DNA of 64,000 bases from an uncultured Gammaproteobacteria bacterium (lineage in GTDB: Bacteria > Patescibacteriota > Microgenomatia > Levybacterales > GWA1-39-11): the NCBI GenBank assembly GCA_964425075.1, contig CAYRKM010000001.1, positions 106,137 through 170,136 on the forward strand, read 5' to 3'. Shown piece after piece: positions 615 through 48,008 of the stretch; positions within the stretch are counted from its first letter, which is position 1; every line of letters begins with the position of its first letter. The notes beneath the pieces are model-generated. The model was not told the DNA's origin. It searched no databases and saw only the letters and a program-made list of their open reading frames with translations. The translations under genes and the position numbers were made by a program.

Positions 615-810
615 AATTTAGAATATGGAATATTGAATTTAGAGAATGTGTTTTTGCAGTCAAACAATTTAACCATTTGCTTATAATTGTTCAAGAAAGC
701 CCCGACTGTGAAGTCGAGGATGAATTGAACGGTTACAGACTCGTCGAAGACGAAGTCTGAGAAAACCCCGACCGTAAGGTCGTGGGTTATTTATTTTCGA
801 ATTATGCTAA

Positions 811-2334
811 TTGCGTGAAAATATCTTGACATTAATCTTCAAATCTGGCTTAAATAGAAAAGACCATATCTTTATGTCTTTCTTATCAGGTGTGCAAAAA
901 ACGCTCTTTCCTGTTGTGCTTGTTGTTGGCGCATTATTTTTTTTGAGTGTAAAACAATCCGACGCCGCCTCATTTTCAAGCGCAAGTGCTACTCTTTCCA
1001 CCTCACGTCCTTCTGCCTCAAGCCCACTTAGTGCTGATGCAGCAAGTGGAGCATCTCAAGCTAGCATTTATAGTAATGGCTCAAGATATCTAGCTTCAGA
1101 CTCTGCCCAACTCTACAGAACCTCAAGTGGTGCGTATATTGATGCAGCGATTGTTGTAGCCTCTCAATCAGCAGCATTTACAACTGTTTACTTTGGTGAC
1201 ACAACTGGAGCAGCAGCTCAAAATGGAACAGATGTTCTCATGGTTCCGATCACTTCACTTCATACAATTCGATTTACTCTTACAACAGCACTTCCTGCAG
1301 GAGGCGATATTATTTTAAATTACCCAGGTAGCGCAAATAACACTGCGTCTCCTTCAGCAACTAGTTTTGCATTCAATAATTTAAATGGGACAGGAGGTTT
1401 ACCTGCAAATGTTGTCACAAATGGCATAACGTGTAACTCAAATTCCTATGTTACTTCTCCTCAAATTATGTGTGAAAGCACTGCTGGAGTAAGCGCCGGA
1501 ACAACTATTACTTTTCTTATTGGTTGTTCTGCCCAAAGCGGAGGTTCCTGTACAACCCAGGTTCCTAGAATGATAAATCCAACTAAATCAGCTGCTGCCG
1601 GAACTGCAGACGTTTGGAAAGTTGTTGTTCAATCTCGCGACTCTAGTGATGTGGTGCTAGATACTTCAACACTTGCTATGGGTGTTATTGAAACGGTTAC
1701 TATTCGAGCTACAGTTGACCCTAGTCTTACATTTACAATTGCAGGTATATCAAATGCCACTGCTGTAAATAATGGAAACACAACCGGATGTTTACAAACA
1801 GAAACTACAAATTCTGGTATTGCCTCAACTGCTACTGAGGTAGCATTAGGAGTTCTTGGACAAATTCCAGGCACTAATACCAAACTTCCAAATATTGCGG
1901 CCCAACTTCTGACAGTTAGTACAAATGGTGCGGCTGGATACTCACTTGTTGCAACATCAAGCGGAAAACTCAGAAATCCTGCAACAGGTTTTTCTATAAA
2001 TAGCTCAACTACCCCCCAAGCCTTCCCTGCTTCTACCCCCTTCTTTGGACTACATGCTTGTGGACTAGATAGTGACGTTACTTTCTGGAATTCTACGGGA
2101 AGCTCTGCGTGCAACAGCTATGTAACCGGCTCAACTGATCCAATTTGTCGTTATGGTTGGCCTACGACAACAGAACCAGTTCTTTTGTCTTCTGACTCTA
2201 CAGGACCAATTGGAAATAGCATTCTTGCAGGAAATGGGCTGACAAGCGTTTCATATGCATCTGCAATTGATGCAACCGTACCACCAGGCGAATACACGAC
2301 AGTTGTAACTTATGTTGCAACACCGTCATTTTAA
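811..2334 (+). CDS. secreted Ser/Thr/Gly-rich surface protein; paralog of 17819..18595 (shared C-terminal ...TYVATPS[FI] end); possibly a divergent WxL-like cell-wall-binding domain
   Basis: A signal peptide is visible if translation starts at the internal Met (MSFLSGVQKTLFPVVLVVGALFFLSVKQSDA, nt 874). The C-terminal half aligns by eye with 17819..18595 (LTVSTNGAAGYSLVATSSGKLRNPATG vs LTISNGSAYGYSVLASENHPLRVNPIG; ends TTVVTYVATPSF vs NVITYVATPSI). No TM anchor. Confidence 0.6.
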   Translation: MRENILTLIFKSGLNRKDHIFMSFLSGVQKTLFPVVLVVGALFFLSVKQSDAASFSSASATLSTSRPSASSPLSADAASGASQASIYSNGSRYLASDSAQLYRTSSGAYIDAAIVVASQSAAFTTVYFGDTTGAAAQNGTDVLMVPITSLHTIRFTLTTALPAGGDIILNYPGSANNTASPSATSFAFNNLNGTGGLPANVVTNGITCNSNSYVTSPQIMCESTAGVSAGTTITFLIGCSAQSGGSCTTQVPRMINPTKSAAAGTADVWKVVVQSRDSSDVVLDTSTLAMGVIETVTIRATVDPSLTFTIAGISNATAVNNGNTTGCLQTETTNSGIASTATEVALGVLGQIPGTNTKLPNIAAQLLTVSTNGAAGYSLVATSSGKLRNPATGFSINSSTTPQAFPASTPFFGLHACGLDSDVTFWNSTGSSACNSYVTGSTDPICRYGWPTTTEPVLLSSDSTGPIGNSILAGNGLTSVSYASAIDATVPPGEYTTVVTYVATPSF

Positions 2335-2429
2335 AAGAGTAGTAAGTATTAAGTAGCAAGTATTAAGGTTTGTCAGATGAAGACTGATATCTACTAGCTA
2401 CATACTACTTTCTACCCGATACCAAACAT

Positions 2430-3404
2430 ATGTCGACTGCCAAAATTTGTAAAACAAAATATTTTATAAAGTCATTCTTCATTACTTCTCTTTTTAGTTT
2501 GTTTTTGGTTTTAACTGCAAAATTTATATTTGCTCAGGAAAACCCCCGCACGATTACAATTGTACCCCCCACTGTTGAAAGAAGTGTGAATCCTGGAGAC
2601 AGGGCTGAAGGTACCCTAAAAATCGTAAATGATAGCAAGACTCCTATAACCTTTAAGGCATACGTGAGAGATTTTATAGTTGAGGATACAATTGGAACAC
2701 CAAAAATCTTAGCAGACGATATATTATCAAAAAAATATTCAGCCTCGTCCTGGATAGCCGTTGTTCCTGATGCTTTTATAGTTTCTCCAGGTACAAGCCA
2801 AACCCTTAATTACTACCTTCAAGTTCCACTTGATGCTCGTCCAGGCGGTAGATATGCAGCAGTTGTATACGAACCTCAAGAGTTAATAGGTGTTCAAGGC
2901 ACAGGTGCTGGTGTTGAAACTCGACTTGGTTCTCTTTTTATCCTAAGAGTGAGTGGAGATGTATTGGAAAACGCAACTGTCGAGAAATTTCAAGCTCCAG
3001 GTTTTGCCGAGTATGGTCCAGTGAGCTTAATAACAGAAATTAAGAACCTGAGCGATGTACACATAAAACCAAAGGGAATAATAACTATTAAAAATATGTT
3101 TGGACAAATTATGGAAACCCAACCTCTTCCTGAACATAATATTTTTCCTGAAGCGGTAAGAAAATTTGAAAATTCAGTTGGAAAAAAATATTTGGCCGGA
3201 AGGTATACTGCAGAGCTTCAAGCAACATATGGAATTAATAACAACCTTACTCTCTACGCAACGACTAACTTTTTTGTTTTTCCTTGGAAAATAGCCGGAA
3301 TTGTATTGCTTGCAGGAATTCTTGCCATTCTTCTTGTTCTTTATATCAAGAAAAGGAAGGAAGAAAAAAAGTCATCTTCAAGCCCCGACCACACAATACA
3401 ATAA
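2430..3404 (+). CDS. cell-surface protein with N-terminal signal peptide and C-terminal TM anchor + basic tail (CscA/DUF916-like architecture); paralog of 18996..19958
   Basis: N-terminal signal (FFITSLFSLFLVLTAKFIFAQ). C-terminal helix IAGIVLLAGILAILLVLYI followed by KKRKEEKK. Blocks of similarity to 18996..19958 (TITIVPPTVERSVNPG vs LSVSVYPPILEVQTTPP; the C-terminal anchors). Confidence 0.6.
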   Translation: MSTAKICKTKYFIKSFFITSLFSLFLVLTAKFIFAQENPRTITIVPPTVERSVNPGDRAEGTLKIVNDSKTPITFKAYVRDFIVEDTIGTPKILADDILSKKYSASSWIAVVPDAFIVSPGTSQTLNYYLQVPLDARPGGRYAAVVYEPQELIGVQGTGAGVETRLGSLFILRVSGDVLENATVEKFQAPGFAEYGPVSLITEIKNLSDVHIKPKGIITIKNMFGQIMETQPLPEHNIFPEAVRKFENSVGKKYLAGRYTAELQATYGINNNLTLYATTNFFVFPWKIAGIVLLAGILAILLVLYIKKRKEEKKSSSSPDHTIQ

Positions 3405-3479
3405 TATTACCAAAAAGTATTATAGTAATTTGACTGCTTAGATTTTTGCTGCTAAAATTCGTTGTGATTTGAACAGTTG

Positions 3480-4150
3480 AAGGTTGTTTGTGGGACCGAG
3501 AGTACTGCATTCTCGAACCCTTTATCCTTCTCTTTTCATCAGCCCATAAGCATTACTATTATGCTTTTGGTGCACATTGACAAATCCTGAGTGAAAATTC
3601 AGCTGCTCTTGAGCAGTTTTACCAACTAGAGGGGCTTGCCCCGCAAGATTTGGAGCGGCGAGGATGCCAAAAAGAAAACGGGCCAGGGGAAACCTAGGCA
3701 AACGGCTAACTACCGGGCAACTTGGGCTCTGGGAAAGCATGATGCGCGAGCCGGGTGTCCAACCGGACATCTACGAGGGCGTTATTGCCGATGTTGACGC
3801 CTCCGGGCGTCAGATCGTACCCCGTGACCGCGACGAGGAAGGAGAAGCGCATGTGGCAACTAATTAAATGGGTACCTGGAGGTCCCAACAAGGTTCTAGT
3901 CGAGGCTCTCGATGAACCAAGAGCTGCTTCTGCTTTCCGTAGCAGACGGGAGGGCCAGTACACCATACGGGTTATCCAGCCAACTGGAGAGGAAGTCCCA
4001 CTGGACTGGTACAATCTCGCGCTCGACCACGAGATCTAGCTCACTCAGGACGGGTGAAGAAAGAGAAACTACCCGCAAGGGAATTATTTGCCACGAATTG
4101 CTCGTGTCAACTGATTGGGCAGCGCCCTTTTCACTCTTTCTTCACCTTCG
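3480..4150. other. GC-rich ~670-bp island without a convincing CDS (only short mutually overlapping ORFs on both strands); candidate structured RNA or remnant of foreign DNA
   Basis: Abrupt composition shift relative to the AT-rich flanks. Several local hairpins (for example GGGGCTTGCCCC at ~3632, GTGTCCAACCGGACAT at ~3753). Six-frame ORFs are 60-100 aa and overlap each other. Confidence 0.3.
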
Positions 4151-4157
4151 TCCCAAA

Positions 4158-5882
4158 TTAATTTACAATTCTTTGGGACTTTTCTAAATCCACATTTCGA
4201 TCTTTTTTATTCTCAAGAATGCGAATAAATGGTAATGTGAACACAATTGATGTTCCTTCTCCAAATTTTGAATGAACAGAAATATTGCCTCCATGGCTCT
4301 CAATGATAGCTTTTGATATATATAGACCTAGTCCAGTTCCGCGTCTCCTATGAAGATTGGTTGCTTGAGAAAATGGTTGGAAAAGCTGTTTTATTTTTTC
4401 ATCCTCTATTCCTATTCCATTGTCTCTTACCTCAATTTCTATGTTATTTCCTTTTAATCTAGAAAAAATCTCAACTCTCCCTCCCCTATTTCCAAACTTA
4501 ATTCCATTAGACACCAAATTTGCCAAAACTTGCTCAATTCTAACGGGATCAAAGGCAAAGATGGGTACATCTACACCTTTGTACTTTTCTATCGTTATTC
4601 CCCTATTGTTGGCCTCGTACGTGAATGTTTGGACAAGCTTGTCGATAATTTCATTGATGTCTGACTGTTTGGGAATTATTTGCATTTTTCCTATATCGAT
4701 TTTGGCCGTGTCAAGAAGCTCTTGAATATCATTCAAAAGCCTTTCTGTTGAGTCATGAAGAATGTGCTTAAGCTTTAATTCATCATCTCTCTCTAATTTT
4801 TCTGCTAAAAGAAGCGAGGAAGCTCCCCTCATAGCTGTTAATGGCGCTCTAAGCTCATGAATGACCATATTTACAAATCCCTCACGTGTTTTATCAAGCT
4901 CTTTTTCAACAGTTATATCCTGCATCGTAACGGAAACCCCAATTATGGTTTCGTCATTTGAATCAAAAACAGGCGTAAGATAAATATTGAAGTGTTTTTC
5001 ACTTATCTCTACATTTCGGTAAAATGTACTTTTTTTCATAAGGATTACCTCTTTCATTTCGGTAATTAAGTTTGGGGAAAGTTTGAAGCTATTCAAAACC
5101 TGAACAAGCTCCAATTCTCCTGAAAGTTTCAAAAATCTTTTAGCTGCATTATTTATCGTAAACAGTTTCAAACTATTATTTTCTATAGTAAAAAGCATCG
5201 CTCCAGACGAAAGGCTTTTTATCAATGACTCAACTTTGCCCTTCTCTGTCTCAATTACATTCTCTAACCTACCGATTGCAAATTGAGCCTGATTTACGAT
5301 TTTATACAAAAGACTCATATCCTCGTCTTGATAAGCATGCGGAGTGCTTGATGATATATTTATAATTCCAATAAAGCGATTGTTAAGAACCAATGGAATA
5401 TTAAAATAAGACTGAGGAACCCCATCATAGGGAGTCAAACTATCAAGCAATGACTCATCTTCCTTGGAAATATGTGCTCCTGCGGACTTCTCAATAAGCG
5501 GAAAAGATTTTAGCGAATCATCTATTTCATAAACTGCCTGGAGCATGATTTGCTTAACACCCGAAAGATATGAAGGGCCCACCTTCTCTTTGGTTAAAGT
5601 TGTAAGTTCTAAATGCCCTTTATCAATTATCGTGAAAGAAACAGATGAAACTTTAAAAAGCTTTTCTATGGTTGAGGCCAAAGTTGTTGCTACATCTTTT
5701 ATGCTTAATGTGTATCCTGTTTTGTCTGAGATCTCCTTTAAAATGCTTAATTCAAATAGTTGCTGAGAATGTTTTTTTTCTTTTTTAAAAAGCTCTAGTT
5801 TGGTAGACTTGAGGCGAAAATACAAATAAACGGTCGTAAGACTCGTTATCAAAAATCCAAACATTGTAAAAGTCTCAAGCAT
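4158..5882 (-). CDS. sensor histidine kinase (N-terminal TM, GAF/PAS-like sensory region, HisKA + HATPase_c)
   Basis: H-box HELRAPLTAMRG. N/G1/G2 boxes (LVSNGIKFGNRGGRVEI.. DNGIGIEDEKIKQLFQPF.. GTGLGLYISKAIIESHGG). N-terminal hydrophobic segment. Confidence 0.85.
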   Translation of the reverse strand: MLETFTMFGFLITSLTTVYLYFRLKSTKLELFKKEKKHSQQLFELSILKEISDKTGYTLSIKDVATTLASTIEKLFKVSSVSFTIIDKGHLELTTLTKEKVGPSYLSGVKQIMLQAVYEIDDSLKSFPLIEKSAGAHISKEDESLLDSLTPYDGVPQSYFNIPLVLNNRFIGIINISSSTPHAYQDEDMSLLYKIVNQAQFAIGRLENVIETEKGKVESLIKSLSSGAMLFTIENNSLKLFTINNAAKRFLKLSGELELVQVLNSFKLSPNLITEMKEVILMKKSTFYRNVEISEKHFNIYLTPVFDSNDETIIGVSVTMQDITVEKELDKTREGFVNMVIHELRAPLTAMRGASSLLLAEKLERDDELKLKHILHDSTERLLNDIQELLDTAKIDIGKMQIIPKQSDINEIIDKLVQTFTYEANNRGITIEKYKGVDVPIFAFDPVRIEQVLANLVSNGIKFGNRGGRVEIFSRLKGNNIEIEVRDNGIGIEDEKIKQLFQPFSQATNLHRRRGTGLGLYISKAIIESHGGNISVHSKFGEGTSIVFTLPFIRILENKKDRNVDLEKSQRIVN

Positions 5883-6004
5883 AATTTAAGTATGAAATAA
5901 AAATTAACAGGTAGCAAGTAGTAGCGGACTTAAGGTATGGGGAATTATTAAGAGTGATTGGTGGGAGACGACGCGCGATGCGTCGCCCCCCACCGGTTGC
6001 AGAG

Positions 6005-6409
6005 CTACGAAGCAGCGAGTGCTTCCTCGACCTCGAACATGTCGCTGGATCGAAAGAAGAGGAATTTTTGTTTCCATGAGAGACGTTCCACATCAACTGC
6101 GTTGATGATTTCACGTCCCCGCTGGCTATCGTCCCGGACAATCCCTTGGATTTCCGAGAGGCTAATGGGCGCTCCTTCGATCTCGGCATCGTCAAGTTTG
6201 CCCGTGCGGGCATCCCTCAACCCTTCCGAGATGTTCTGGAGCTCTGCCATCAAGATGGCAAAAGCCCCCTCGTCGTACTCCCTGCGGGAGCAGACGACGA
6301 ACCCGAACAGTCGAACAGCCACGAAACACTTCCCTTCTCGGCATAGCCGAATTCGCTCTGCTATATGTCTTACCGAAAGTGACTTTTGAGAACGTGCAAC
6401 CGCGCTCAT
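6005..6409 (-). CDS. hypothetical protein encoded in a GC-rich island (likely horizontally acquired)
   Basis: 134-aa ORF that fills the GC-rich block ~5940-6410. Other-frame ORFs are shadows typical of GC-rich DNA. A CGACGC-GCGAT-GCGTCG hairpin lies just past its stop. Confidence 0.4.
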   Translation of the reverse strand: MSAVARSQKSLSVRHIAERIRLCREGKCFVAVRLFGFVVCSRREYDEGAFAILMAELQNISEGLRDARTGKLDDAEIEGAPISLSEIQGIVRDDSQRGREIINAVDVERLSWKQKFLFFRSSDMFEVEEALAAS

Positions 6410-6570
6410 ACATCACAAACAGTACCTACAATTTTACTCCTTTTGAACCCAAATGTCAAGCTATAGGATGTTTCTGCTACCCAGAAATAGGATAACTTTT
6501 TGAGCAATGACTAATGGTTAATAGCTAATAGTTTTTTTGTATTTCAAACTAATTTTTCTCTTTCGTCGTT

Positions 6571-7725: not shown

Positions 7726-8106
7726 TTATGATTGGTTATCTCCTAAAATTCCTTTTACCTTTTTCACCAAATCCTCATTTGAAATTTGATATTTCAAAAT
7801 ATAGTCAACTGCCCCAACTCCAAGGGACTCATTTACCATTTGGTCATTTGAAAAATTGGTTAGCATTGCAACTTTTACGTTATTCGTTAATGAATTACCT
7901 TTTAATTTCCTTAAAACCTCATTGCCAGATAAATCGGGCATCATTTGATCAAGCAAAACAAGGTCGTATGCAATATGTTGAGCCTTATCAAGCGCCTGTT
8001 GACCATTTTCCGCAATTGTTAACTCGTAGCCAGCTTGTTTTAAAACAGTTTCAAATACTGTCCGTGTCTCTGGCTCGTCATCAACCAACAAAATCTTTTT
8101 TGACAT
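7726..8106 (-). CDS. CheY-like single-domain response regulator (receiver domain only)
   Basis: KILLVDDEP..D..LLDQMMPDLSG..VAMLTN receiver signature (DD pair, phospho-acceptor Asp, conserved T and K). 126 aa, so no output domain. Confidence 0.8.
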   Translation of the reverse strand: MSKKILLVDDEPETRTVFETVLKQAGYELTIAENGQQALDKAQHIAYDLVLLDQMMPDLSGNEVLRKLKGNSLTNNVKVAMLTNFSNDQMVNESLGVGAVDYILKYQISNEDLVKKVKGILGDNQS

Positions 8107-12869: not shown

Positions 12870-15869
12870 CTATTTAACCACTATATTGAGGATTTTTCCC
12901 TCTACGTATATAACTTTTACAACATCTTGCCCTTCTAAGTACTTTGAAAGTTGCTCTCTTGCCATTTTTTCTATCTTTTCCTTATCCTTTGCCTCAAGAG
13001 ACTTAACCTCAATAATAAGCCTCTTTTTACCGTTAACCTGCACTACAATATCAGCAGTTTCACTCTGAAGCATTGCGCTATCAAAGTCTGGCCATGAGCT
13101 TATGTGAATTGAGTTAGTATTTCCTAATTTCTGCCACAGCTCCTCTGTCATGTGAGGCGCAAATGGGGCCAAAAGCTTTAAATATGTCTCTTTTTCTTCT
13201 CTCATCAACCCTTCTTGAGTAGAAAGAAAGTTATACCATTCCATTAGTGAGGCTAAAGCAGTATTGTTTGTAAACTCTTCTACCTGTTTTGTTACCTTTT
13301 GAATTGTTCTGTGCATAAATCTTTTTGCTTCAATTGAAGCTTCGTTTGTCTCAGGTTTCTCGCTTATGAGTTTCCAAACTTTCTTAAGGAATCTATTCAT
13401 TCCCTCAATTCCACTATCTCTAAAGTCTCCACCCTCAGATAAAGGTGCGATAAACATTAAATAAGAGCGCAAAGTATCAGCCCCATATTTAGAGATATAT
13501 GCATCAGGAACTACCACATTGCCCTTAGACTTTGACATTTTCGCCCCATCTTTTATCACAAGGCCATTAGCAAAAAATCTGGAAAATGGTTCTTCGAAGT
13601 TCAAATATTTCAAATCGTGAAGCGCCATCGTGATAAAACGCGCATACAAAAGATGTAGCACTGAATGTTCAGCTCCGCCAATATACATATTCACAGGAAG
13701 CCATTTTTTAGTAATTTCTGTATCAAAAGGTGCGGTTTGTATATCAATTGATGGGTATCTTAAGAAATACCATGCGCTATCAAGAAACGTATCACTAACA
13801 TCAGTCTCGCGTTTAGCTGGCTTACCACACTTAGGACAATCAACTTCAAAAAACTCAGGATGGTTATCAAGGGGAGCTTTTCCTGTGCCCATTGGTTTCC
13901 AATCTTCTACATCCGGAAGCAAAACAGGCAATTTATCATCAGAAACACAATACCATCCGGGCATGTCATTACGCTCACCCTTATTGTTTGTTGCACAATT
14001 CTCACAATAAATCATCGGAATTGGTGGTCCCCAATAACGTTGTCTAGAGATAAGCCAATCTCTAAGGTGATACTGTATCTTTCTTTTGCCAATTTTCTTT
14101 GCCTCAAGCGAGCTCAAAATTTTATCAGCGTCTTCCGGCATGTGAAAACCATTCCATTCATCAGATCCTATAATTTCTCCTTTTCCCTCAAACGCTTCAC
14201 TTAATTCTCCATTCTTAATTCTTGACTCTTTATCTTGAATTACTTGGACAATCGGTAGATCATATTTCTTAGCAAACTCGAAGTCTCTCTGGTCATGAGC
14301 TGGAACTGCCATAATTGCACCCGTCCCATAGCCTGAAAGAACATAGTCTGCTACAAAAATTCGTATTTTTTTCTGATTGAGTGGATTTATGGCAAAAAGA
14401 CCAGTATCTACTCCAGTTTTTTCTTTTCCTTCTGCAGTACGCTCAATATCCGTCTTGCTCTTCGCCATTTCTATATACTCTTTAACTTCTTGACCATTGT
14501 TATTATTTGCTACTTGCTCCGCAAGCGGGTGCTCTGGTGCAATTACCATAAAAGTTGCCCCATATAATGTATCAGGCCTAGTTGTAAAGACTTTTAGGCT
14601 ATTTAGCAAAACTTCAAGTACCTTTGGCTCAATTTCTCCACAGATGTGATCATCTTTGGACTCAAAATCTATGATTTCTCCACCAATTTGTTCCTTTATG
14701 TAGTCTGCTCTCTCTTTTGGTACAGCAGTATCATTTTTAGCTCTTAACAGTACTATATTCGCCACATTTTTCTTTATGGTTTGTGTATCAAACTGTCCGA
14801 TTTGTTCCTCAAATGACTTATCATGATCTAAAAATCCTGGCTGCATAAATCCGGCTCCTAAAACTAAATTTTTAATAGGCTTTTCCAGCTTTTCAAGAAC
14901 TTTTAAGGCAACGACTGAACCAAGGCTATGCCCTAAAATTACCGTATTTTCATCAATTTGAGCATTTTTTAAAACAAATTCAGCCTGTTCATCTATATTA
15001 GGATTATCAGTATTGGGCAGGTTTTGAGCCCAAACTTTATTGCCCCTCTTTTCTAGTTCTTTCTTAAGCCATGGAAAGAAATTAGCCTCAACTGACCCAG
15101 TATATCCATGCAAAAGAACATAATTAGACTTTTCATCTACTTCAAACTCCACTTCTGCTCCTTCGCTTTTTCCTATCCAATTTCTTTGGGCAATTTTGAC
15201 CTTTTCAGTCCAATTGAGACTCTCAATATTATTTAAAAGTCTCTCAGCGTAATTTGTAATCCTAAAAAACCACTGCTCAAGCTCTTTCTTCTCCACTTTG
15301 CTTCCACATCTCTCACACTCTCCTGCTATAACCTGCTCGTCAGATAACACTGTTTGATCCTGAGGACACCAATTTACGGTCGCCTTTTTACGGTAAGCAA
15401 GGCCATTTTTAAAGAGTTGTGTGAAAAGCCATTGTGTCCATTTATAATATTCAGGGTCATAAGTTTCAATTGTCCTATTCCAATCAAATGAATTTCCAAT
15501 ACTTTTAAGTTGGCGGTAGAAGTTAGACTCTGCTATTTCAGCCTGAACTTTTGGATGACGGCCCACTTTCATGGCATAGTTTTCACTATGGATTCCAAAT
15601 CCATCAAGCCCAATTGGCTCGAAAACATCATTTCCCTTCATTCTCTGGTAACGCCCATATACATCAGCGCCTGTAAAAGCGTACATATTACCCACGTGAA
15701 GACCCTCAGCTGAAGGGTACAGGAACATCATGAGGTTGAAAAAAGGTTTTTTTGCGTTGATTATATTTGGAGAATACAATTTATCACTCTCCCAAACTTC
15801 CTGCCATTTGGCTTCAATTTCTGAGTGGTTATACTCCTTTTTTGAACTGTTTTGTTTATCTTGTGCCAT
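12870..15869 (-). CDS. leuS: leucyl-tRNA synthetase with an inserted alpha/beta-hydrolase (RBBP9/YdeN-type serine hydrolase) domain preceding the CP1 editing domain
   Basis: HIGH-type motif LHVGNMYAFTGADVYGRY. KMSKS motif (KMSKSKGN). CP1 editing signature TTRPDTLYGATFMVIAPEHP...GTGAIMAVPAHDQRD. Anticodon-binding and C-terminal domains present. About 175 extra residues (aa ~250-426) carry GHSLG plus Asp and His. Confidence 0.9.
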   Translation of the reverse strand: MAQDKQNSSKKEYNHSEIEAKWQEVWESDKLYSPNIINAKKPFFNLMMFLYPSAEGLHVGNMYAFTGADVYGRYQRMKGNDVFEPIGLDGFGIHSENYAMKVGRHPKVQAEIAESNFYRQLKSIGNSFDWNRTIETYDPEYYKWTQWLFTQLFKNGLAYRKKATVNWCPQDQTVLSDEQVIAGECERCGSKVEKKELEQWFFRITNYAERLLNNIESLNWTEKVKIAQRNWIGKSEGAEVEFEVDEKSNYVLLHGYTGSVEANFFPWLKKELEKRGNKVWAQNLPNTDNPNIDEQAEFVLKNAQIDENTVILGHSLGSVVALKVLEKLEKPIKNLVLGAGFMQPGFLDHDKSFEEQIGQFDTQTIKKNVANIVLLRAKNDTAVPKERADYIKEQIGGEIIDFESKDDHICGEIEPKVLEVLLNSLKVFTTRPDTLYGATFMVIAPEHPLAEQVANNNNGQEVKEYIEMAKSKTDIERTAEGKEKTGVDTGLFAINPLNQKKIRIFVADYVLSGYGTGAIMAVPAHDQRDFEFAKKYDLPIVQVIQDKESRIKNGELSEAFEGKGEIIGSDEWNGFHMPEDADKILSSLEAKKIGKRKIQYHLRDWLISRQRYWGPPIPMIYCENCATNNKGERNDMPGWYCVSDDKLPVLLPDVEDWKPMGTGKAPLDNHPEFFEVDCPKCGKPAKRETDVSDTFLDSAWYFLRYPSIDIQTAPFDTEITKKWLPVNMYIGGAEHSVLHLLYARFITMALHDLKYLNFEEPFSRFFANGLVIKDGAKMSKSKGNVVVPDAYISKYGADTLRSYLMFIAPLSEGGDFRDSGIEGMNRFLKKVWKLISEKPETNEASIEAKRFMHRTIQKVTKQVEEFTNNTALASLMEWYNFLSTQEGLMREEKETYLKLLAPFAPHMTEELWQKLGNTNSIHISSWPDFDSAMLQSETADIVVQVNGKKRLIIEVKSLEAKDKEKIEKMAREQLSKYLEGQDVVKVIYVEGKILNIVVK

Positions 15870-16216
15870 GTTTTAATTGTAAATTGCCCCCCTGGCGAGC
15901 CTCGCCTTTGGCGGGAAAACTGTGAATTAGCTTCGAAATTCAATACGACTTTATAATCGTTATATCCGACATTACTTTATTATAAGGCATATTTCATTGA
16001 AAATTGAAAATTGAAAAATGAAAATTGCACTCTAGTATACCAAATGAGGCTAAAAAAACACCATGCAATTTACTCCAGGATATATAATTATGGTATAATT
16101 ACTTCCTTAGCAACCCGGTTCTGACACGCAAAAAGCTTGCGCTTATTAGGACTGTGGATGCAGTTCTTTGACAGCGTAGGTTAACACCAACGATAACTCG
16201 CTATAGGAGGTAAAAC

Positions 16217-16489
16217 ATGCCGCTCCTGATTGCTCTGTGGCTGATGTCCTGCATCGGCATTGGAGTACGAACGTACTCCAATCCGAAGGACATTAAGGGC
16301 ATCGCAATTGCGTTTGGACTTTGTGCTGTCCCACTCACGTGGGCATTCGGCAACGGTCCGGCCGCAATCATCATTGCGGTCTCTTTCCTCGTCTGTATTC
16401 TCTTTGGAGCCTGGCTTCGAAGATATTACGGCGAGGAGATCAACCAGTTCTTGTGCAGGCTCGAGGAGAAATTCTACGAGCTGAAATAA
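16217..16489 (+). CDS. small membrane protein in a GC-rich island (hypothetical)
   Basis: Strong SD (TAGGAGGTAAAACATG). Two to three TM helices. GC-rich relative to flanks. Confidence 0.5.
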   Translation: MPLLIALWLMSCIGIGVRTYSNPKDIKGIAIAFGLCAVPLTWAFGNGPAAIIIAVSFLVCILFGAWLRRYYGEEINQFLCRLEEKFYELK

Positions 16490-16544
16490 TGCAGACTAGA
16501 AAACCCAGCGACCAATACCCAACCTGAAAGGAAGGGATGAACAG

Positions 16545-17084
16545 ATGCGACCAGGAAAAGAAACCGTCAAGAACGCAGGCTTTGTTACTATCGTGGCAAC
16601 GTTTACGATCATGATTGGGGTACTCTTTGTGGCTTCTGGAGAGAAACCAGAACCTGCAACGAGCTCCAGGGCCAAAGTTGACCTCCAGTTGTTGGCCTCG
16701 CCAACAACTGTACCAACACTGCTTCCTGCAGCTTCTCGCTGTTCTGAAGCAATATACATATACCCTCAAGGCGTAATTCTATTCCACAACTTGGATCCAT
16801 ATCCTGTCGATGGATTCGATTTCCAAGTCTGCACAACAGACAGGATGACGCCGATAACAGCTGCTGATATGATGGTCGCAGCTAACGAGGGGCAACTCGC
16901 AATGGAGGAAAGTCTCCTCTGGGATCCAGACCTTCTAATGAGAGTATTCTTAGAAGCGGCTGTCCCAAGGATATCGCAACTCCATCCCGAGCTAAGAGGG
17001 CTGCTTCTGGAGACATACTTCCAGTTCATACCTAAAGGAGGAGTCATCCCCACAGCGACAGCAACATCAAGACCCTCTACATAG
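16545..17084 (+). CDS. hypothetical N-terminally TM-anchored protein in a GC-rich island
   Basis: N-terminal TM (FVTIVATFTIMIGVLFVASG). Same GC-rich block as 16217..16489. Overlapping ORFs in other frames are treated as GC shadows. Confidence 0.45.
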   Translation: MRPGKETVKNAGFVTIVATFTIMIGVLFVASGEKPEPATSSRAKVDLQLLASPTTVPTLLPAASRCSEAIYIYPQGVILFHNLDPYPVDGFDFQVCTTDRMTPITAADMMVAANEGQLAMEESLLWDPDLLMRVFLEAAVPRISQLHPELRGLLLETYFQFIPKGGVIPTATATSRPST

Positions 17085-17124
17085 GGGCGGCACATCGATT
17101 GGCTAAGAAACCTACGCGACTAGA

Positions 17125-17165
17125 CTCCCGCTTTGCCCTAACCGGCTGAGCGGGAGAAACCCTTT
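17125..17165 (+). terminator. stem-loop (CTCCCGCT ... AGCGGGAG, 8-bp stem) followed by a short T-run; terminator-like, closes the GC-rich island
   Basis: Perfect 8-bp inverted repeat 17125-17132/17149-17156, then AAACCCTTTT. Confidence 0.35.
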
Positions 17166-17213
17166 TAAAGCCCCAAACTTGAACTTTCTATATAAATCCA
17201 CTACGATTAAATT

Positions 17214-20613: not shown

Positions 20614-23600
20614 ATGGAATTCCTTGAACTATTCAAAAGACAACTTACACAAACTTCAAATGGTATTTCAAAAATAAGCCTGAAGAACTATCTTTCTGAT
20701 ATTCGTCACTTTATTAACTGGTTTGAGTACACCACAGGGAACACTTTTTCACCAAAAAATATTACCGCAGAGGTAATTGAGCTATATATTGCATCCCAGG
20801 GAGCAGTAATTTCAGACGGAAACCTTTCAACCCAAGACAAACTTTCGCCAAGCTCTATGAAAAGACATCTTTCCTCGCTTCGAAAGTTTGTCTCGGTGCT
20901 CAAAAAAGAAAACCTACTTGAAGAAAATCCGTTTGAGGAAATTAACCAGACAAATGAAGAACAGAATTACGATTATTGGCACTTTGATTCATTTAAAGAT
21001 TATTTGCTCCAAAATAATGCCTCAAAATTAACCGTAAAAAATTATCTTTCTGATATAAAAGGTTTTGCAAGTTGGTACGAACAGGCAATATTACCTACGC
21101 TTATTTCCCCTCTCACCTCAACTAATGGTGCTTATCGGATCTCTCAAGAAATAGTTCAGGAATATAAAGACAGATTGTTTAATATACAATCATCAGCTCC
21201 ACGCACAATTAACCGCAAACTGTCTTCACTCCGCCGATATTTGGAGTTTGGAACGAATAAGGGCTTTATTAATCCTGGAGAAATAGTTCTACCTTCTATC
21301 CAAATAGGGAAAGAGGAGGCAGAACCTGTAAAGATTCAGCTAAAAGATCTTAATCAAACTCAAACTTTAGAAACAAAAAGCTATTCTTCCTTTCCTCCAG
21401 CAAGACTTCTTCAAAAGCTAGTTATTTTCCCTTATTTACTTCTTGAAGATGCCGTTGCCTCAAAAGTCGCAACAATTATGACTGGAAAAGAAATGATTGC
21501 AGGAATTGCACTTTCTCAATTAGATAAAGTGAAAATGAGCACTCGCGCTATAGTCAATGCTCAAAATCAATCAATTGACGCGATTTTGGGCGTAAGAAAT
21601 GTAAAAAAGGAATTCTATGCTCCTCACCAAGTACAATTATCTGGACTCCCTTTCCACAAAAAATTACTTTATCATGCACGATATACTAGACCAAAATGGT
21701 ATAAAACATATCATAGTTATCCATTTGTACATTATGCCCATTTTGCACTCCTTATAATCTTTGCAGTTGGAGTTGGGGTTGCAGCTTATCAGAATTTGGT
21801 AGGAAAAAATCAAAGACCAACCTTTGCCGCCCCCACGGCTCCACCGAGAATACTTTCATTTCAGGGAAGACTAACTGACGCAAGTGATAACCCAATTACA
21901 AGTGCAACGGATATCCGGTTTGCAATTTATAATGATCTTTCAGCATCAGGCGCTGCTCTTTTGTGGCAAGAAGTTCACTACGTTGTAACCCCTGACCAAG
22001 ATGGAATATTCTCCGTACTTTTGGGAACAAATGATGCAATACCTTCAACTGTATTTTCAGATAATGCAGGAACTTATCTTGGTGTTACAATCAACCAAAC
22101 ATCAGAACTTACGCCACGTCAAAGAATTGCCGCAGTTGCATACGCTACTAATTCTGAACAGCTTCAAGGAATGCCTCCTATTACCGCAGGTGGGGCTGGA
22201 ACCTCAAATGTTGTACTAGCACTTGATTCATCAGGTAATCTAACCATTGGTGGAAGCGCAGCTCCAACCTTTACAGCCTCGGGGGGTCAATTCAGACTAT
22301 CGGGTCAGCCTCTTGTTCTAAATACAAATTCAAGTTCAAATGGAAATATCGTTCTTGCTCCTGATGGACTTGGAAGGATAGATCTTCAAAAACCACTAGT
22401 AAATAGTGGAACTTCAGGGAACATTACTCCAGGGGGAGTTGAGGTAAATGATAAATTTGGAGTTCTTGCAACAGAATCGGGAGTCGCATCATTTGTTATC
22501 AACAACAATGGTTCAAGCGACATTTTTACAGCCTCATCATCGGGATCTCCTCGCTTTACTATCTCAACAACAGGCGCTCTTACTATTCCAACATATAACA
22601 CAAATGGTGGAATCTTCTATGCAAATGGTTCGGGAGTTGTTGCACAGACAACTGCAGGAAGCTCGGGGGAATGTTTGCAGTCAATTGGAGGAGGAACACC
22701 AACTTGGGGATCTTGCGGAAGCGGCAGCGGAAGTCTTTGGAGATTATCAAGTGGCGCTTTATCTCCCATAAATGATACTGCGGATGTATTGATTGGAAGT
22801 AATGCTACAGCAAGCGCGAAATTCGCATTCATAAATGTTGCTGGGGGAACACCAACAGCTTCAATCTCTGCAAGTAGCGGAAACAATTGGACAACATTAA
22901 GCGGAGATGGAATTTTGGGAACAACAAACAAACAAACACTTTCTATAGGAAACAGCTCGACAGGAATTATTGCAATTAATTCTCCCGAGAACAGTAAAAC
23001 CTCAATTGGAACAGGCTCAACACTTGGAACACTTAAGATTTCAGGTCAGTCTCCGGGAAAAGCTTTAGTAAACCTCCAATATCTAGGGTCTGGTCAAAAT
23101 ATTTTGGTTGCATCAAATTCCGCCGGAACCAATGTCTTTACTATCGAGGAGGACGGAGACATTATTGTGGGAAATGCGGGTGCAGGCAAATTGACAGCTG
23201 CAATAATTGACCCTTATCTAATCCAAAATCAATACACGTCAGTTACTCCCGAACTTATTTTCCAAACAATGGCAGCTACAAGTGGAGACTTTATATATAA
23301 AAACCAATCAACCGAGCTTGCACGCCTTGCCCAAGCCGGACAATTTCAACTTCCAATAACAGGCTCTTCAGGAGGACTTGTAATTGGAGCTGACACACAG
23401 CTTTTTAGAGGCTCTGCCGATAGGCTTGATTTAGCATCAGGCGACTCATTTAATCTTGTTTCGGGTAGCATTCAAATTGGCGGAACTACGGTTATTGACT
23501 CCTCACAAAATGCAACATTCAGCAGCCTAACTGTTACTGGTGGATGTACGGGTTGTGTAAGCGCATCAGATTCACCTTTTAAGGTATTAAGTGGTGCAAT

Positions 23601-26600
23601 TGTACCACTCAACTCAACGCTTGACTTCACTCTTGGTGGTCAATCAAGCGCATCAGCAAAATTTGCAGTACTTAATATCGGCACAGGAACACCCACAGCT
23701 TCAATCTCTGCAAATTCTGGAGATAATGCTCTATATATAACAGGAGACGGTTCTCTTGCAACAACCAATAGACAAAGCCTAACAATTGGAAATTCATCAA
23801 CATATAACACAACGGGAAATGTGCTGATAAATTCTAATGCAACCGGCAATGTTGGGTTAAGAACCGCAACGCCTACAAGTTTCAACGTAGAATTTGCGGG
23901 AAGCCTTGGACCAGCAGTAGATAATTCCTCTGTTCTTGGATCTGCATCAAGGAGATTAAATTCTATATATTTAGGTGACGGTGGTCTCCAAGCTGTAGGC
24001 AATGCCGGAACTTCCGGATCTGTAAATATCAATACAGCTGCAAGTGCTGTTACGGTCACTAGATACGGACAAAGGATATTGAATAATACGTTAAATACTA
24101 CAACAGACGGAATTGATAAATATGGACTTTATATCAACAACACAGGTTCTTTTACAGGACTGACAGGAACTTCTACCAATAACTACTCTTTATACATCTC
24201 TACACCTTCAGGTGCTGATAACAATTATTCTATATATTCAGCGGGTGGAACAAATTACCTTGCAGGAAATACAGGACTTGGTACAACAACACCGACAGCT
24301 CTTCTTGATGTAGCAGGTACTGCTTCTGTTTCAGGGGCTTTGAAGCTATATGGAACTCCTACCATCCAATCTACTGCAAATCAAACATTGACACTAGGTG
24401 GAGATACAACTGGAAGTATTGTGCTTTCACCTCTCAATGGTTCGGGGACAATTCAACTTACAAATTTTACTACAAACGGTGGCTTAATATATACTAATGG
24501 ATCAGGTGTACTGGCTCAAACCGGTGCAGGAAGCGCTACTCAATGTTTGCTTGGAGGCACTACTCCTACTTATGGCAGTTGTGCAACTGGAACAACCGTA
24601 ACACCTTTCCAAGAATTAACTGGTGCAATAGTACCAAATAATTCAACTCTGGACTTCCTAATTGGAGGGCAAGCAACAGCAAGTGCTAAATTTGGAATAT
24701 TAAATATAGCCGGAGGAACACCAACCGCCTCAATTAGTGCAAATAATGGGAATATAGCAACTTACCTTGCCGGTGACGGGACTCTTGCAACTACAAATAG
24801 GCAAACTTTAACTATTGGTAATTCCTCTACATACAACACAACGGGAGAAGTACTAATAAATCCTAATGGAACTGGAAATGTAGGCGTCGGGACAACAAGC
24901 GCAAGGTCAAAATTCCATGTTGCCAATGCTTACTCAGGCCAAGCAACACCTAATGCCTCTTCTATCTTAACAATTGAAAACAATGCTAATGCATATTTAA
25001 GTTTTCTTACACCGGCCAATGTTCAGAGCGGTATCCTTTTTGGAAGTCCTACAAATTCAGCTCAAGGACAAATTACCTACAATCATTCTTCAAATTATTT
25101 AAATTTTTATACAGGAGGAGCTGATAGGGCTAGAATTACAAGCACGGGTTTTGGAATCGGCATGACTTCACCAATATCTCAACTTCATGTTTCAAGAAGT
25201 GCAGCGGCTACGGGCAAAGCATTGGCTGTTTTTGATCAAACGGAAAGTCAAGATATAATAACAGCTTCTGCTTCTGGTATTACAAAGTTTGCAATTACAA
25301 ACAGTGGGGTTTTGCAACTTGTTGGTGGACAAACTTCAGATATTGATACTTTAACAAATGCTACTCTAAATATTGGGGCGACAAATGCCACCACTATTTC
25401 TATTGGTCGATCAAGCCAAGGTATTACACTTCCTGGATTTACTGGTCAAAATGGAATACTTTATGGAACTTCAGGAACTGGAGTATTAGCTCAAGCGACT
25501 ACTGCCTCTACTGGTCTTTGTCTACTCTCAGGAGCCGCAAATCCAGCTTGGGGAACTTGTCCAACAACAGGAAATTCAAGCTCAAACTGGACACTGAACT
25601 CAACAGATGGAACTCTTTATCCAATAAATAGTACTCTTGATGTATTAATAGGTAATACTGCATCAACTTCTGCCAAATTTGCATTCTTAAATGTTGCTGG
25701 AGGAGTACCCACAGCTTCAATTTCTGCAAATACAGCTGATAACAATACTTTCTTAACAGGAGCTGGTAACCTTGCAACAACCAACAAACAAACCCTAACA
25801 CTTGGGGGCAGCACAACAGGAGGAATAGTTATTGATTCAGGAAGCTCCTCAATAAATCTTGCGGATGATACCTCTATAACAGGTAATATTACTGGCTCAG
25901 GTACAACTGGACTTACTCTCACGGGTGCTGGAGCTGGAATTACCTTCTCAGGAAGTGGACTTCATGAAATAGGTGCCTCATCAGGAACTCTTCGAATTGG
26001 AACACACACACTAACCGGCGCAATAACCGGAGGAAATCAAAATATCAGCTCAATTGGTAACATCTCAGCGAATTCTTCCTCAAATACATTAACTGGTTTT
26101 GGAACAATTGGAACTTCTGGAACTACTGCTTTCGTTGGCACCAACCTAACCCTAGCAGGTGCTGCAACTGATATAACTTCAGGTGCCAATCAAGACTTGG
26201 CAATAACTGCAAATGGTACAGGAAACCTAATACTTACCACAGATTTTGATACTAGCGTAAAAGTTGGTACATCAAATAATATCATGGCACCTCTTTCGGT
26301 ATCTGGAGGTATCGGATCTAATGCTGGATTTATCCTAGATCAACTTAATGATGGGGACTTATTCACTGCCTCTGCTGCTGGGGTTACTAAATTTACTTTC
26401 ACAAACGGCGGGTCGCTTAACCTTACAGGTGGTCAAACAATAGATACTTTAGCTTCCGGAACTCTAGGAATTGGCACTACAACAGCTACTACTCTTACGT
26501 TGGGCAGAAGTGGACAAGGGATTACACTTCCAGGCTTTACGGGTCAAAATGGAATACTTTATGGAACTTCAGGAACTGGAGTACTTGCACAGGCCACGAC

Positions 26601-29577: not shown

Positions 29578-29611
29578 CGAAGTCAATTTAATGATAAATG
29601 CTAAATGATAT

Positions 29612-29995
29612 ATGGTAAACAATAATACAAACAAGTATGCAAATGTAGAGGAATTACCTGTATGGCAAAAGGCTCATGAATTTACTCTCCTAATCTATAA
29701 GCATTCCTCCGTGTTTCCTTCTTCTGAAGTATATGGTCTCACATCTCAAATCAGAAGATCTACCTCATCCATTCCTGCAAATATAAGCGAAGGATTTTAT
29801 AGAAAAAGTACCAAAGAACTTATTCAATTTATTTATAATGCACGTGGCTCTCTTGGAGAGACTCTTTATCACATTCGATTGGCGAAAGATCTAAAATATT
29901 TAGATGAAAAAACATTTTTATTACTTCGTTCAGAAGCTGAAGATATCAGCAAGCAAATGAACGGCTGGTTAAAAAGCTTAAAATCCAAACTCTAA
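29612..29995 (+). CDS. four-helix-bundle protein of the 23S-rRNA-intervening-sequence / Avd (DGR accessory variability determinant)-like family
   Basis: LPVWQKAHEFTLLIYKHSSVFPSSEVYGLTSQIRRSTSSIPANISEGFYRKSTKELIQFIYNARGSLGETLYHIRLAKDLKYL matches the family signature as I recall it (VWQKAH.L.L.IYK....FPK.E.YGLTSQ(I/L)RRAA.SI.(A/S)NIAEG..R.S.KE...FL.IA.GS..E...). 127 aa. Confidence 0.75.
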   Translation: MVNNNTNKYANVEELPVWQKAHEFTLLIYKHSSVFPSSEVYGLTSQIRRSTSSIPANISEGFYRKSTKELIQFIYNARGSLGETLYHIRLAKDLKYLDEKTFLLLRSEAEDISKQMNGWLKSLKSKL

Positions 29996-46730: not shown

Positions 46731-47181
46731 AAACATCGCCGTTTTGCATGGCAAATATCCAACTCACAAAAACCTTGTTCTTTGACAAGGTAACAGGAAA
46801 AAGGCATTTTTGGTGCCGGGCACAGCGTACCATATTGAACCAAAAGGTTCATATGTCCGATTTCACAATCGGTCATAACAAGCTGCTACGAAGGGGTAAA
46901 ACCTGACGTATAAATATGGTGCGCGCTGTCCGGCGCCAAATGAGCGTGGAAAAACGGGTTTAGAGAAAGGAGGCCAATAATGGCCTATTGCTTGAACTTC
47001 TGCATACTCCTGCTCGACTCCCTTTGGGGAGCGAACAGGATCCGTGCAGGCCCGTTTATTTGAAACGGAAACATCAACCCAGTAGCATAGTAATGACTAA
47101 GCCTTCGCGCAAGCGGAGAGGCAGGTAACTCTGCTAAACCATGCATGCCGGCAAAGTCCGGTTAGCAAAAGGGAGATCACC

Positions 47182-47913
47182 GTGAGGTGGTATTCGTACA
47201 TTGGCCTGGGAGCCGCCGTGATCTTCATGGCTGGATTCTTCAGTGCCTGCTCGGACGACAGTGGAGCCACTGCTGACGAGATCGCTGCTGCGATCATCGC
47301 CGCCCAAGCGACTGCAACCCCAGCAGCAACGGCGGCAGCAACGGCAACGGCTAGCGCACTCACGCCCGACCAAATTCGCCAGATCGTTCTGGACGAAATG
47401 GCCAAGGCGGGGCTGCCAGAGCCGACCAGCGCACAGCTGCAAGAGATCCTCAAGAGCCTCACTGAGGCCCTGAAGGGCTCGACCCAGACTGCAGATCAGT
47501 TCCGCGGTGCCGTCAAGGTCTGGCTGACTTCTAACCAGAAGGTCCAGGCTGGCGTCGTGCCCGCCTATAACCCAGCAGCGTTCCCCAAGAGCGCCGCTGA
47601 GGCAGCAGCCATCTTCGGAGGCGACGCTTCCCGTTGGGAGCCGACGGCTGACTGCTGTGGTTGGCATCTGCGCGAGGAGGCGTTCACCACTCTCATCCAG
47701 CCGAAAGGTTTCCTGGGTGAGGGCTACAACGACACCAAGCCTGGGAAGAATCCGGACTGCTACACGTTCGTTGCGCCAACTTCGGTCCAGGGCGCCACGA
47801 TCTGGCAAGAGGCCGGCACCTACCCGAACGCCGTCGCGCTTCAGAAGAAGATGGCCATCCCCGTCTGGGATGATGGCAAGCAGCACGCTTGCCAGGTACT
47901 CGCAACGCCATAA
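47182..47913 (+). CDS. putative lipoprotein (GTG start) encoded in a GC-rich island; likely horizontally acquired
   Basis: GGGAG SD 7 nt before the GTG. Signal plus lipobox-like AGFFSAC. Ala/Thr-rich linker. Strongly GC-rich versus flanks. A ~280-bp GC-rich leader lies upstream. Confidence 0.55.
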   Translation: MRWYSYIGLGAAVIFMAGFFSACSDDSGATADEIAAAIIAAQATATPAATAAATATASALTPDQIRQIVLDEMAKAGLPEPTSAQLQEILKSLTEALKGSTQTADQFRGAVKVWLTSNQKVQAGVVPAYNPAAFPKSAAEAAAIFGGDASRWEPTADCCGWHLREEAFTTLIQPKGFLGEGYNDTKPGKNPDCYTFVAPTSVQGATIWQEAGTYPNAVALQKKMAIPVWDDGKQHACQVLATP

Positions 47914-48008
47914 GCGCTTAGCTTCTCGCATGGGAGGGGGGTCCGATACGTCGGCCCCCCTCAAATACTTTCACTGGGACATTCCTGTTACCTTGTCCCC
48001 TTTGCCCG

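Follow-up and report, generated by a model that had tools for sequence, protein, structure and literature searches.

A GC-rich island in an AT-rich bacterial genome is likely an unannotated two-gene operon whose alleles are exchanged by recombination

The window analyzed here is a stretch of 64 kb with a mean GC fraction of 0.384, in which the GC content rises to 0.54-0.575 at ~3600-4100 as compared with 0.34-0.37 in the flanks. The profile climbs from 0.35 at 3401-3600 to 0.57 at 3601-3900 and is back to 0.37 by 4101-4300 (all in 200-nt windows). Delimited by 150-nt windows with GC >= 0.5, the island is 3561-4150, 590 bp in length, with a GC fraction of 0.541. The initial annotation, which drew the island from 3480 to 4150, correctly recognized the compositional anomaly, yet placed its left edge about 80-100 nt too far to the left; the edge lies nearer 3560, as 3405-3480 has 28% GC and the leader 3481-3663 has 46%. 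Its description of short ORFs overlapping on both strands holds, the largest ORF of the island being 102 aa long. The features of the island and its two neighbors are given below, with differences counted against L026, a 603-bp metagenome contig that shares the left flank and aligns to the window from 3377 to ~3980.

2430-3404, + strand: left neighbor gene, 324 aa, no Pfam match
3430-3458, + strand: promoter-like site, TTGACT, 17-nt spacer, TAAAAT and TG extension; a consensus match only, at 10 of 12 positions
3465-3663, + strand: putative 5' leader, ~200 nt, 46% GC, its extent set by the promoter-like site
3652-3655, + strand: putative Shine-Dalgarno sequence of ORF A, GGAG, 8 nt before the ATG; identical in L026
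3664-3867, + strand: ORF A, 67 aa; its stop lies 17 nt past the ORF B start
3682-3736, + strand: variable patch 1, ORF A codons 7-25; 13 substitutions in 55 nt
3737-3839, + strand: invariant core, ORF A codons 25-59, REPGVQPDIYEGVIADVDASGRQIVPRDRDEE; no differences in 103 nt
3839-3844, + strand: putative Shine-Dalgarno sequence of ORF B, AAGGAG, 6 nt before the ATG
3851-4039, + strand: ORF B, 62 aa, acidic (pI 5.2), beta-rich according to a low-confidence model
4048-4153, no strand assigned: 3' structured element, 106 nt, branched, with an 18-bp outer stem that closes a multiloop with three hairpins
4158-5882, - strand: right neighbor, a histidine kinase gene (GAF-HisKA-HATPase), convergent with the cassette

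A response regulator gene (7726-8106) lies upstream of the kinase gene on the same strand, and the remaining window is made of chromosomal genes (LeuRS, ComEC/ComEA, Rho, pyruvate kinase, enolase, RadA, S1). The leucyl-tRNA synthetase (999 aa, 12870-15869, - strand) is unusual in carrying an inserted alpha/beta-hydrolase domain (PF06821 Ser_hydrolase, residues 250-404) between its N-terminal catalytic part and its editing domain. In the NCBI record, an 835,411-bp contig, ORF A and ORF B are uncalled while the ORFs of islands 2 and 3, described next, are called; on Logan contigs ORF A is called as a gene.

Four GC islands of at least 500 bp are found in the 64-kb window, 3561-4150 and three more:

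5891-6430: GC island 2, 52% GC
16191-17200: GC island 3, 50% GC
46881-48060: GC island 4, 58% GC

Comparing the four by blastn and tblastx revealed no mutual similarity, and the notion that they are copies of one element was rejected on this ground. Island 2 holds a 134-aa ORF (6005-6409, - strand) lacking a family match, inside the string of genes from response regulator to kinase, and island 3 holds two membrane-type ORFs of 90 aa (16217-16489) and 179 aa (16545-17084), both on the + strand and lacking a family match. A 243-aa lipoprotein-like ORF with the lipobox FFSAC is found in island 4 (47182-47913, + strand), with a weak match (E = 0.025) to a Corynebacterium lipoprotein family. Sub-segments of islands 2-4 gave folding z-scores of -2.4 to -6.9, the best-strand values being -4.0 to -6.9. 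A protein search with the ORFs of these islands concatenated into a 646-aa query returned at least 8000 candidates and was uninformative.

The sequence of the locus is reproduced in other data. A Logan contig of run SRR14271372 is 100% identical to window 2117-6153, a range that takes in the island together with the gene on either side. Logan contigs from two runs encode the exact kinase and ORF A products, and in the independent ENA assembly ERZ27247828, from which L026 is taken, the end of the AT-rich host gene is joined to the island. In run SRR14271365, a Logan contig matches window 760-4035, its first 743 nt being unmatched upstream of 760, and a second contig starts at 4071; the break (L013 end 4035, L025 start 4071) falls after the ORF B stop and before the 3' hairpin. 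The mismatch and the break may reflect strain-level structural variation or unitig artefacts. The Logan look-ups returned only contigs 100% identical to the window and no new alleles, and a literature search on the run and assembly accessions found no publication.

ORF B starts at an ATG inside a 94-aa GTG frame. Its product and that of L026 473-601 are 47% identical over 30 aa (E = 6e-8, pairwise), and this similarity is specific to one frame; among all same-strand frame pairs of the divergent segments it alone scores high, at 72, compared with 40 for the next pair, and 300 shuffles reached no more than 43 (mean 28, sd 3.7). In the aligned block synonymous sites are saturated (pS 0.88), pN is 0.38, identity at codon positions 1/2/3 is 53/70/23% and different codons are used at 12 of the 14 conserved residues. 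As the similarity is frame-specific and synonymous sites are saturated at a pN of 0.38, ORF B is, judging by the way its sequence evolves, a real protein-coding gene under purifying selection that is hypervariable between strains. The L026 counterpart is preceded by its own Shine-Dalgarno-type motif, GGAGG, 7 nt before the ATG. GC at codon positions 1/2/3 is 0.65/0.41/0.54 in ORF B and 0.69/0.46/0.57 in ORF A, both with the order GC1>GC3>GC2, a pattern that other frames of the island exhibit less strongly.

The product of ORF A is basic in its N-terminal 27 residues (pI 12) and acidic in the remainder (pI 4.3). Besides the GGAG, a GAGG directly abuts the ATG. With A and B as query, phmmer was run exhaustively against 1.84 billion cluster representatives and returned a single true relative, P0007, a protein of 62 aa encoded on L026 that is 85% identical to ORF A over residues 1-59; two other matches were repeat proteins. 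A profile built from both alleles retrieved the two known A sequences and nothing else. A word-indexed single-sequence protein search with A and B returned nothing, and as it missed both the query's own entry P0001 and the 85% identical P0007, its negatives are weak. The claim that the island holds no convincing coding sequence thus does not stand, given the frame-specific conservation of ORF B with L026 and the 85% identical homolog of ORF A; a clear protein signal in one frame, which the initial annotation had set against its own reading, is found in ORF B, whose score of 72 exceeds the null maximum of 43.

The coding test for ORF A gives a mixed picture. The frame, the Shine-Dalgarno sequence and the overlap with ORF B are intact at 85% protein identity; in codons 1-26 dN and dS are about equal (0.19 each), and codons 27-59 are almost unchanged. 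Substitutions in the variable patch fall at codon positions 1/2/3 as 6/3/4, or 6/3/5 if position 3840 is included. Because the patch has dN ~ dS and no third-position bias, translation of ORF A is not demonstrated; as the same coupled start/stop arrangement is found in L026 and in the window, we consider ORF A a probable gene. Other stop-free frames, on both strands, are also kept in L026, which is due to the high GC content.

Comparing the window with L026 reveals, at the level of the DNA, a mosaic of divergence between two closely related strains. The segment 3377-3681, which includes the end of the upstream host gene, the AT-rich spacer with the same promoter-like sequence, the leader and the start of ORF A, carries 6 differences and is ~98% identical; the patch 3682-3736 that follows is ~25% diverged in 55 nt, and beyond the invariant core, from 3840 onward, DNA identity drops to ~49%. 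This comparison is one of two alleles, and as L026 ends inside ORF B (473-601, 43 aa) the right boundary of the variable region is not seen. At the protein level, the basic head of A and B vary between strains and the acidic core of A is fixed. The stop/start overlap of A and B is 17 nt in the window and 4 nt (ATGA) in L026. Between the ORF B alleles there are indels, and substitutions affect all bases; both alleles are GC-rich (0.53 and 0.50). Since synonymous sites are saturated, both alleles are GC-rich in a genome whose mutational equilibrium lies on the AT-rich side and the flanks are only ~2% different, we infer that the two versions of ORF B were swapped in by recombination from a broader pool rather than having diverged at this locus.

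The initial annotation had pointed to frequent hairpins, and these are borne out; relative to dinucleotide shuffles, 3570-4160 folds with z = -4.9 on the + strand and z = -2.3 on the - strand. Most of the excess comes from the 3' element (4040-4160, z ~ -5.9 on both strands), which at the DNA level is a palindrome. The ORF part by itself has z = -1.9, with five control coding regions ranging from -1.3 to +1.2, the + strand core folds with z = -3.6 and the leader with z = -1.7; z-scores of segments of mixed composition are biased towards negative values, as shuffling dilutes the GC-rich core. Two leader hairpins are CUGCUC-UU-GAGCAG at 3603-3616 and GGGG-CUUG-CCCC at 3631-3642, and the invariant core forms two strong hairpins, one of them GACGCC-UCCG-GGCGUC. 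The minimum free energy structure is closed by a 10-bp inverted repeat, 3585-3594/4041-4050, and since a perfect 10-bp repeat occurs in 33% of block shuffles, we rejected this stem as the closure of an RNA domain or as terminal inverted repeats. RNAalifold on the two alleles found one compensatory pair, two sequences being too few for covariation. The absence of tRNA, tmRNA and other known RNA motifs, already noted in the initial annotation, holds at both Rfam thresholds and in ARAGORN. Rfam 15 at gathering thresholds gave 0 matches in the whole 64-kb window, the families without a match including OLE, ROOL, GOLLD, HEARO, raiA, RNase P, tmRNA and group I/II introns; a permissive scan of 3300-4300 (E<=10) gave only four noise matches of 14-17 bits, and ARAGORN found 0 tRNA or tmRNA genes in the window.

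The 3' structured element is flanked by two stop codons, that of ORF B (4039) and that of the convergent histidine kinase gene (4158). It folds at -47.4 kcal/mol (z = -5.3), the minimum free energy structure making up 35% of the ensemble, and one of its hairpins is CCC-GCAA-GGG. Its 13-bp perfect arms, 4053-4065/4134-4146, are significant, such arms occurring in 0.6% of shuffles, and its outer stem of 18 bp is unlike an acceptor stem. No second copy of the element was found in the window. It probably serves as a bidirectional terminator or as a 3' stabilizer between the convergent transcripts; as a U-tract after the element is absent, the role of terminator can only be proposed. The genome encodes Rho, its gene being in the window.

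The cassette stands out from the genes around it. GC at third codon positions is 0.54-0.57 in the island ORFs versus 0.23-0.32 in host genes, and a Shine-Dalgarno-type motif (GGAG, GAGG or AGGA, 4-18 nt upstream) precedes both island ORFs compared with 4 of 38 long host ORFs, the host genome seeming to use such sites rarely. From the GC3 contrast with the host and the atypical Shine-Dalgarno usage we infer that the cassette is of foreign origin and was probably acquired horizontally. Thus, of the earlier proposal of a foreign, degraded remnant, the foreign part is supported by composition, whereas the degraded part is contradicted by genes that are intact in both alleles. Neither A nor B matched Pfam, PHROGs, NCBIfam or PADLOC (E<=1), and a PDB profile search was not significant. 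Searches of 50,697 phage and 72,556 plasmid records at the DNA and protein level found no similarity, the two tblastn matches (E = 0.06 and 0.8) being non-significant, and viral contigs gave no match to the island; the prophage or plasmid fragment that had been suggested is therefore not supported by phage, plasmid or viral collections. One scan each of genome and metagenome contigs found only two orthologs of the kinase (L001 and L014, ~50% identity), and beside both a short AT-rich spacer takes the place of the island; these relatives are too distant to define the boundaries of the insertion. Upstream of the kinase ortholog in L001 (6000-9900) there is a run of small to mid-size same-strand ORFs of 42-50% GC, an arrangement not shared by the window. 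In this lineage, variable insertions seem to have a hot spot at the two-component locus.

No transposase, reverse transcriptase or integron integrase is found among the 39 annotated ORFs of the window, the only integrase-related match being an N-terminal SAM-like domain. It belongs to a 2987-aa ORF (20614-29995, + strand) whose sole Pfam match is this phage-integrase domain, and directly after it lies a 127-aa gene of the 23S rRNA-IVS/Avd-like four-helix family; there is no reverse transcriptase in the window. A diversity-generating retroelement was considered and rejected, as the window contains no template repeat of 3600-4050 (word size 7) and no reverse transcriptase, the Avd-like gene is 25 kb away and the indels and substitutions at all bases in ORF B depart from the pattern of such copies, which differ mainly at adenines. 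A MITE, REP, IS or transposon was likewise rejected, since the island is single-copy in the window, its bracketing 10-bp repeat is at chance level and phage, plasmid and viral collections are unmatched.

Several other readings of the island have to be weighed against a protein-coding operon, and two of them are RNA-based. A GC-rich island in an AT-rich genome is a classical signature of a non-coding RNA, reportedly since Klein, Misulovin and Eddy in 2002 and in the GC-IGR screens of the Breaker laboratory. The whole GC-rich core could accordingly be a large novel structured RNA, for which the strand asymmetry in folding (-4.9 versus -2.3) and the stable tetraloop hairpins also speak. However, an RNA constrained by structure would be expected to differ from what is seen in ORF B, where DNA that is 49% identical has randomized third positions and a 3-codon indel; in addition, the folding excess of the ORF region is modest, the long-range closing stem is at chance level and Rfam is unmatched even at E<=10. 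For 3851-4039 this reading is largely refuted, and the non-coding RNA put forward in the initial annotation does not withstand the finding that ORF B evolves as a protein; for the core as a whole we regard it as very improbable. It is more difficult to dismiss the narrower proposal that only ORF B is a gene, and that 3664-3850 together with the leader forms a structured regulatory 5' UTR of ~385 nt in which ORF A is a chance frame. The equal dN and dS and the lack of codon-position bias in the patch are compatible with it, at 57% GC a frame is often free of stops and L026 keeps several such frames, the A region contains hairpins with UNCG, GNRA and CUUG loops, the + strand core folds with z = -3.6 and the NCBI annotation omits ORF A. 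Yet the ATG of ORF A and its properly spaced Shine-Dalgarno sequence are conserved in both alleles, the ORF A stop and ORF B start overlap in both despite the differing sequence, as is usual for coupled genes, the GC1>GC2 periodicity of ORF A is, with that of ORF B, the strongest among the frames of the island, Rfam has no leader or riboswitch match and only a single compensatory pair is seen. On balance we consider a long structured leader unlikely.

The other two readings deny the island a function or an existence. It is conceivable that the island is a decaying, functionless fragment of phage or plasmid DNA, in agreement with its atypical GC content, the lack of homologs in the family libraries and its absence beside the kinase ortholog in L001 and L014. 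Decay, however, is difficult to reconcile with purifying selection on ORF B across saturated divergence or with start codons, Shine-Dalgarno motifs and overlap architecture that are intact in both alleles, nor is there phage, plasmid or viral similarity or an adjacent gene for an integrase, transposase or reverse transcriptase, and we hold this reading to be improbable. An assembly artefact or contamination of the metagenome bin, also raised in the initial annotation, could be suspected from the abrupt change in composition and from the Logan contigs of SRR14271365 that break at 4035/4071. Against this, the SRR14271372 contig covers 2117-6153 without one difference and ERZ27247828 independently links the end of the host gene to the island, L026 crossing the left junction; together these exclude misassembly and contamination for practical purposes, and we attach next to no probability to an artefact.

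Based on these data we propose, as the likely though by no means certain explanation, that the island is an unannotated, foreign-looking bicistronic operon on the + strand that encodes two small proteins and whose alleles are exchanged by recombination. In this operon, the sigma-70-like promoter at 3430-3458 would drive transcription from a start near 3465-3470, yielding the ~200-nt leader followed by ORF A and ORF B. The two ORFs are probably coupled in translation, since ORF B begins before ORF A has ended. The branched 3' hairpin (4048-4153) would end or protect the transcript and probably shields the convergent histidine kinase gene. Alleles would be drawn from a larger gene pool by recombination anchored in the conserved leader and the core of ORF A, and the variable head of A and B may co-diversify, thereby keeping the specificity of the partners for each other. 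The AlphaFold single-sequence models of A and B are poor (pLDDT 55 and 64), and Foldseek searches of the PDB with these models gave no credible match. As the models are poor and the fold searches empty, it is purely by reasoning from the arrangement that we arrive at a best guess of function, namely that A and B, both small and cytoplasmic, would interact as a pair in the manner of addiction, immunity or regulator-and-partner systems.

The findings bear on screens that take GC-rich intergenic blocks in AT-rich genomes as candidates for non-coding RNA, and call for caution there, as the block described here appears to be a small-protein operon overlooked by the annotation, and one divergent allele sufficed to reveal this. 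They add two orphan families of small proteins, with two sequences among 5.8 billion clusters. Allele replacement inside a locus of 600 bp, between near-identical strains of a bacterium with a small genome, would suggest that there is a gene pool yet to be sampled and that diversity is selected for. A bolder reading, which we regard as quite unlikely, is that the cassette is the first-seen member of a new kind of recombination-shuffled two-protein specificity module, of the addiction, immunity or anti-defence type, in ultra-small AT-rich bacteria; the four islands of the window would then sample a circulating pool of GC-rich micro-cassettes, possibly acquired from GC-rich host bacteria, with the leader and the core of A as the anchor. 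If true, such a module would be a point of interest in the biology of organisms that are poorly understood. On present evidence, the locus is an unremarkable example of orphan genes that were acquired horizontally and left unannotated.

Several known systems resemble the island in part. In being an apparently intergenic, hairpin-rich and GC-rich block of ~600 nt in a genome of 38% GC, it is similar to the RNAs found in GC-rich intergenic regions (OLE, ROOL, GOLLD, raiA, HEARO); unlike these, it has no covariance-model match, it evolves as codons and its folding excess resides mainly in the 3' hairpin, not the core. With an imperfect palindrome of ~100 nt behind a short cassette, the locus is reminiscent of integron cassettes with attC sites. 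This candidate was rejected, as the attC core motifs (RYYYAAC/GTTRRRY) are absent from the ends of the hairpin at 4048-4153, no integrase (intI) and no array are found in the window and, in contrast to integron cassettes, the cassette has a promoter-like site of its own.

With polymorphic toxin/immunity and pherotype loci (cdiA-CT/cdiI, agrBDC) the island shares the switch from near-identical to highly divergent sequence between close strains, a variable part that takes in the end of one gene and all of the partner gene downstream, and a position next to a sensor kinase gene. It differs from them in that A and B are tiny and are devoid of signal peptides, transmembrane segments and toxin or processing domains, and in that the cassette is convergent with the kinase gene and not co-transcribed with it, the sensor of the kinase being a cytoplasmic GAF domain. 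The likeness would thus be one of evolutionary pattern only. As in type II toxin-antitoxin systems, two small co-directional genes lie in one operon with stop and start overlapping (17 nt in the window, ATGA in L026), the composition is foreign, the presence patchy and the allelic diversity strong, and the first product, A, is charged and of largely disordered character. Unlike these systems, A and B have no similarity to toxin or antitoxin families (Pfam, NCBIfam, PADLOC) and no recognizable DNA-binding fold, and at the promoter no palindrome was identified that could be an operator. With its 62 aa and acidic character, ORF B also bears little resemblance to a classical type II toxin. Membership of the family is not borne out by homology, and it is as a functional analogy, the nearest one available, that a toxin-antitoxin-like or immunity-like pair may describe the two proteins.
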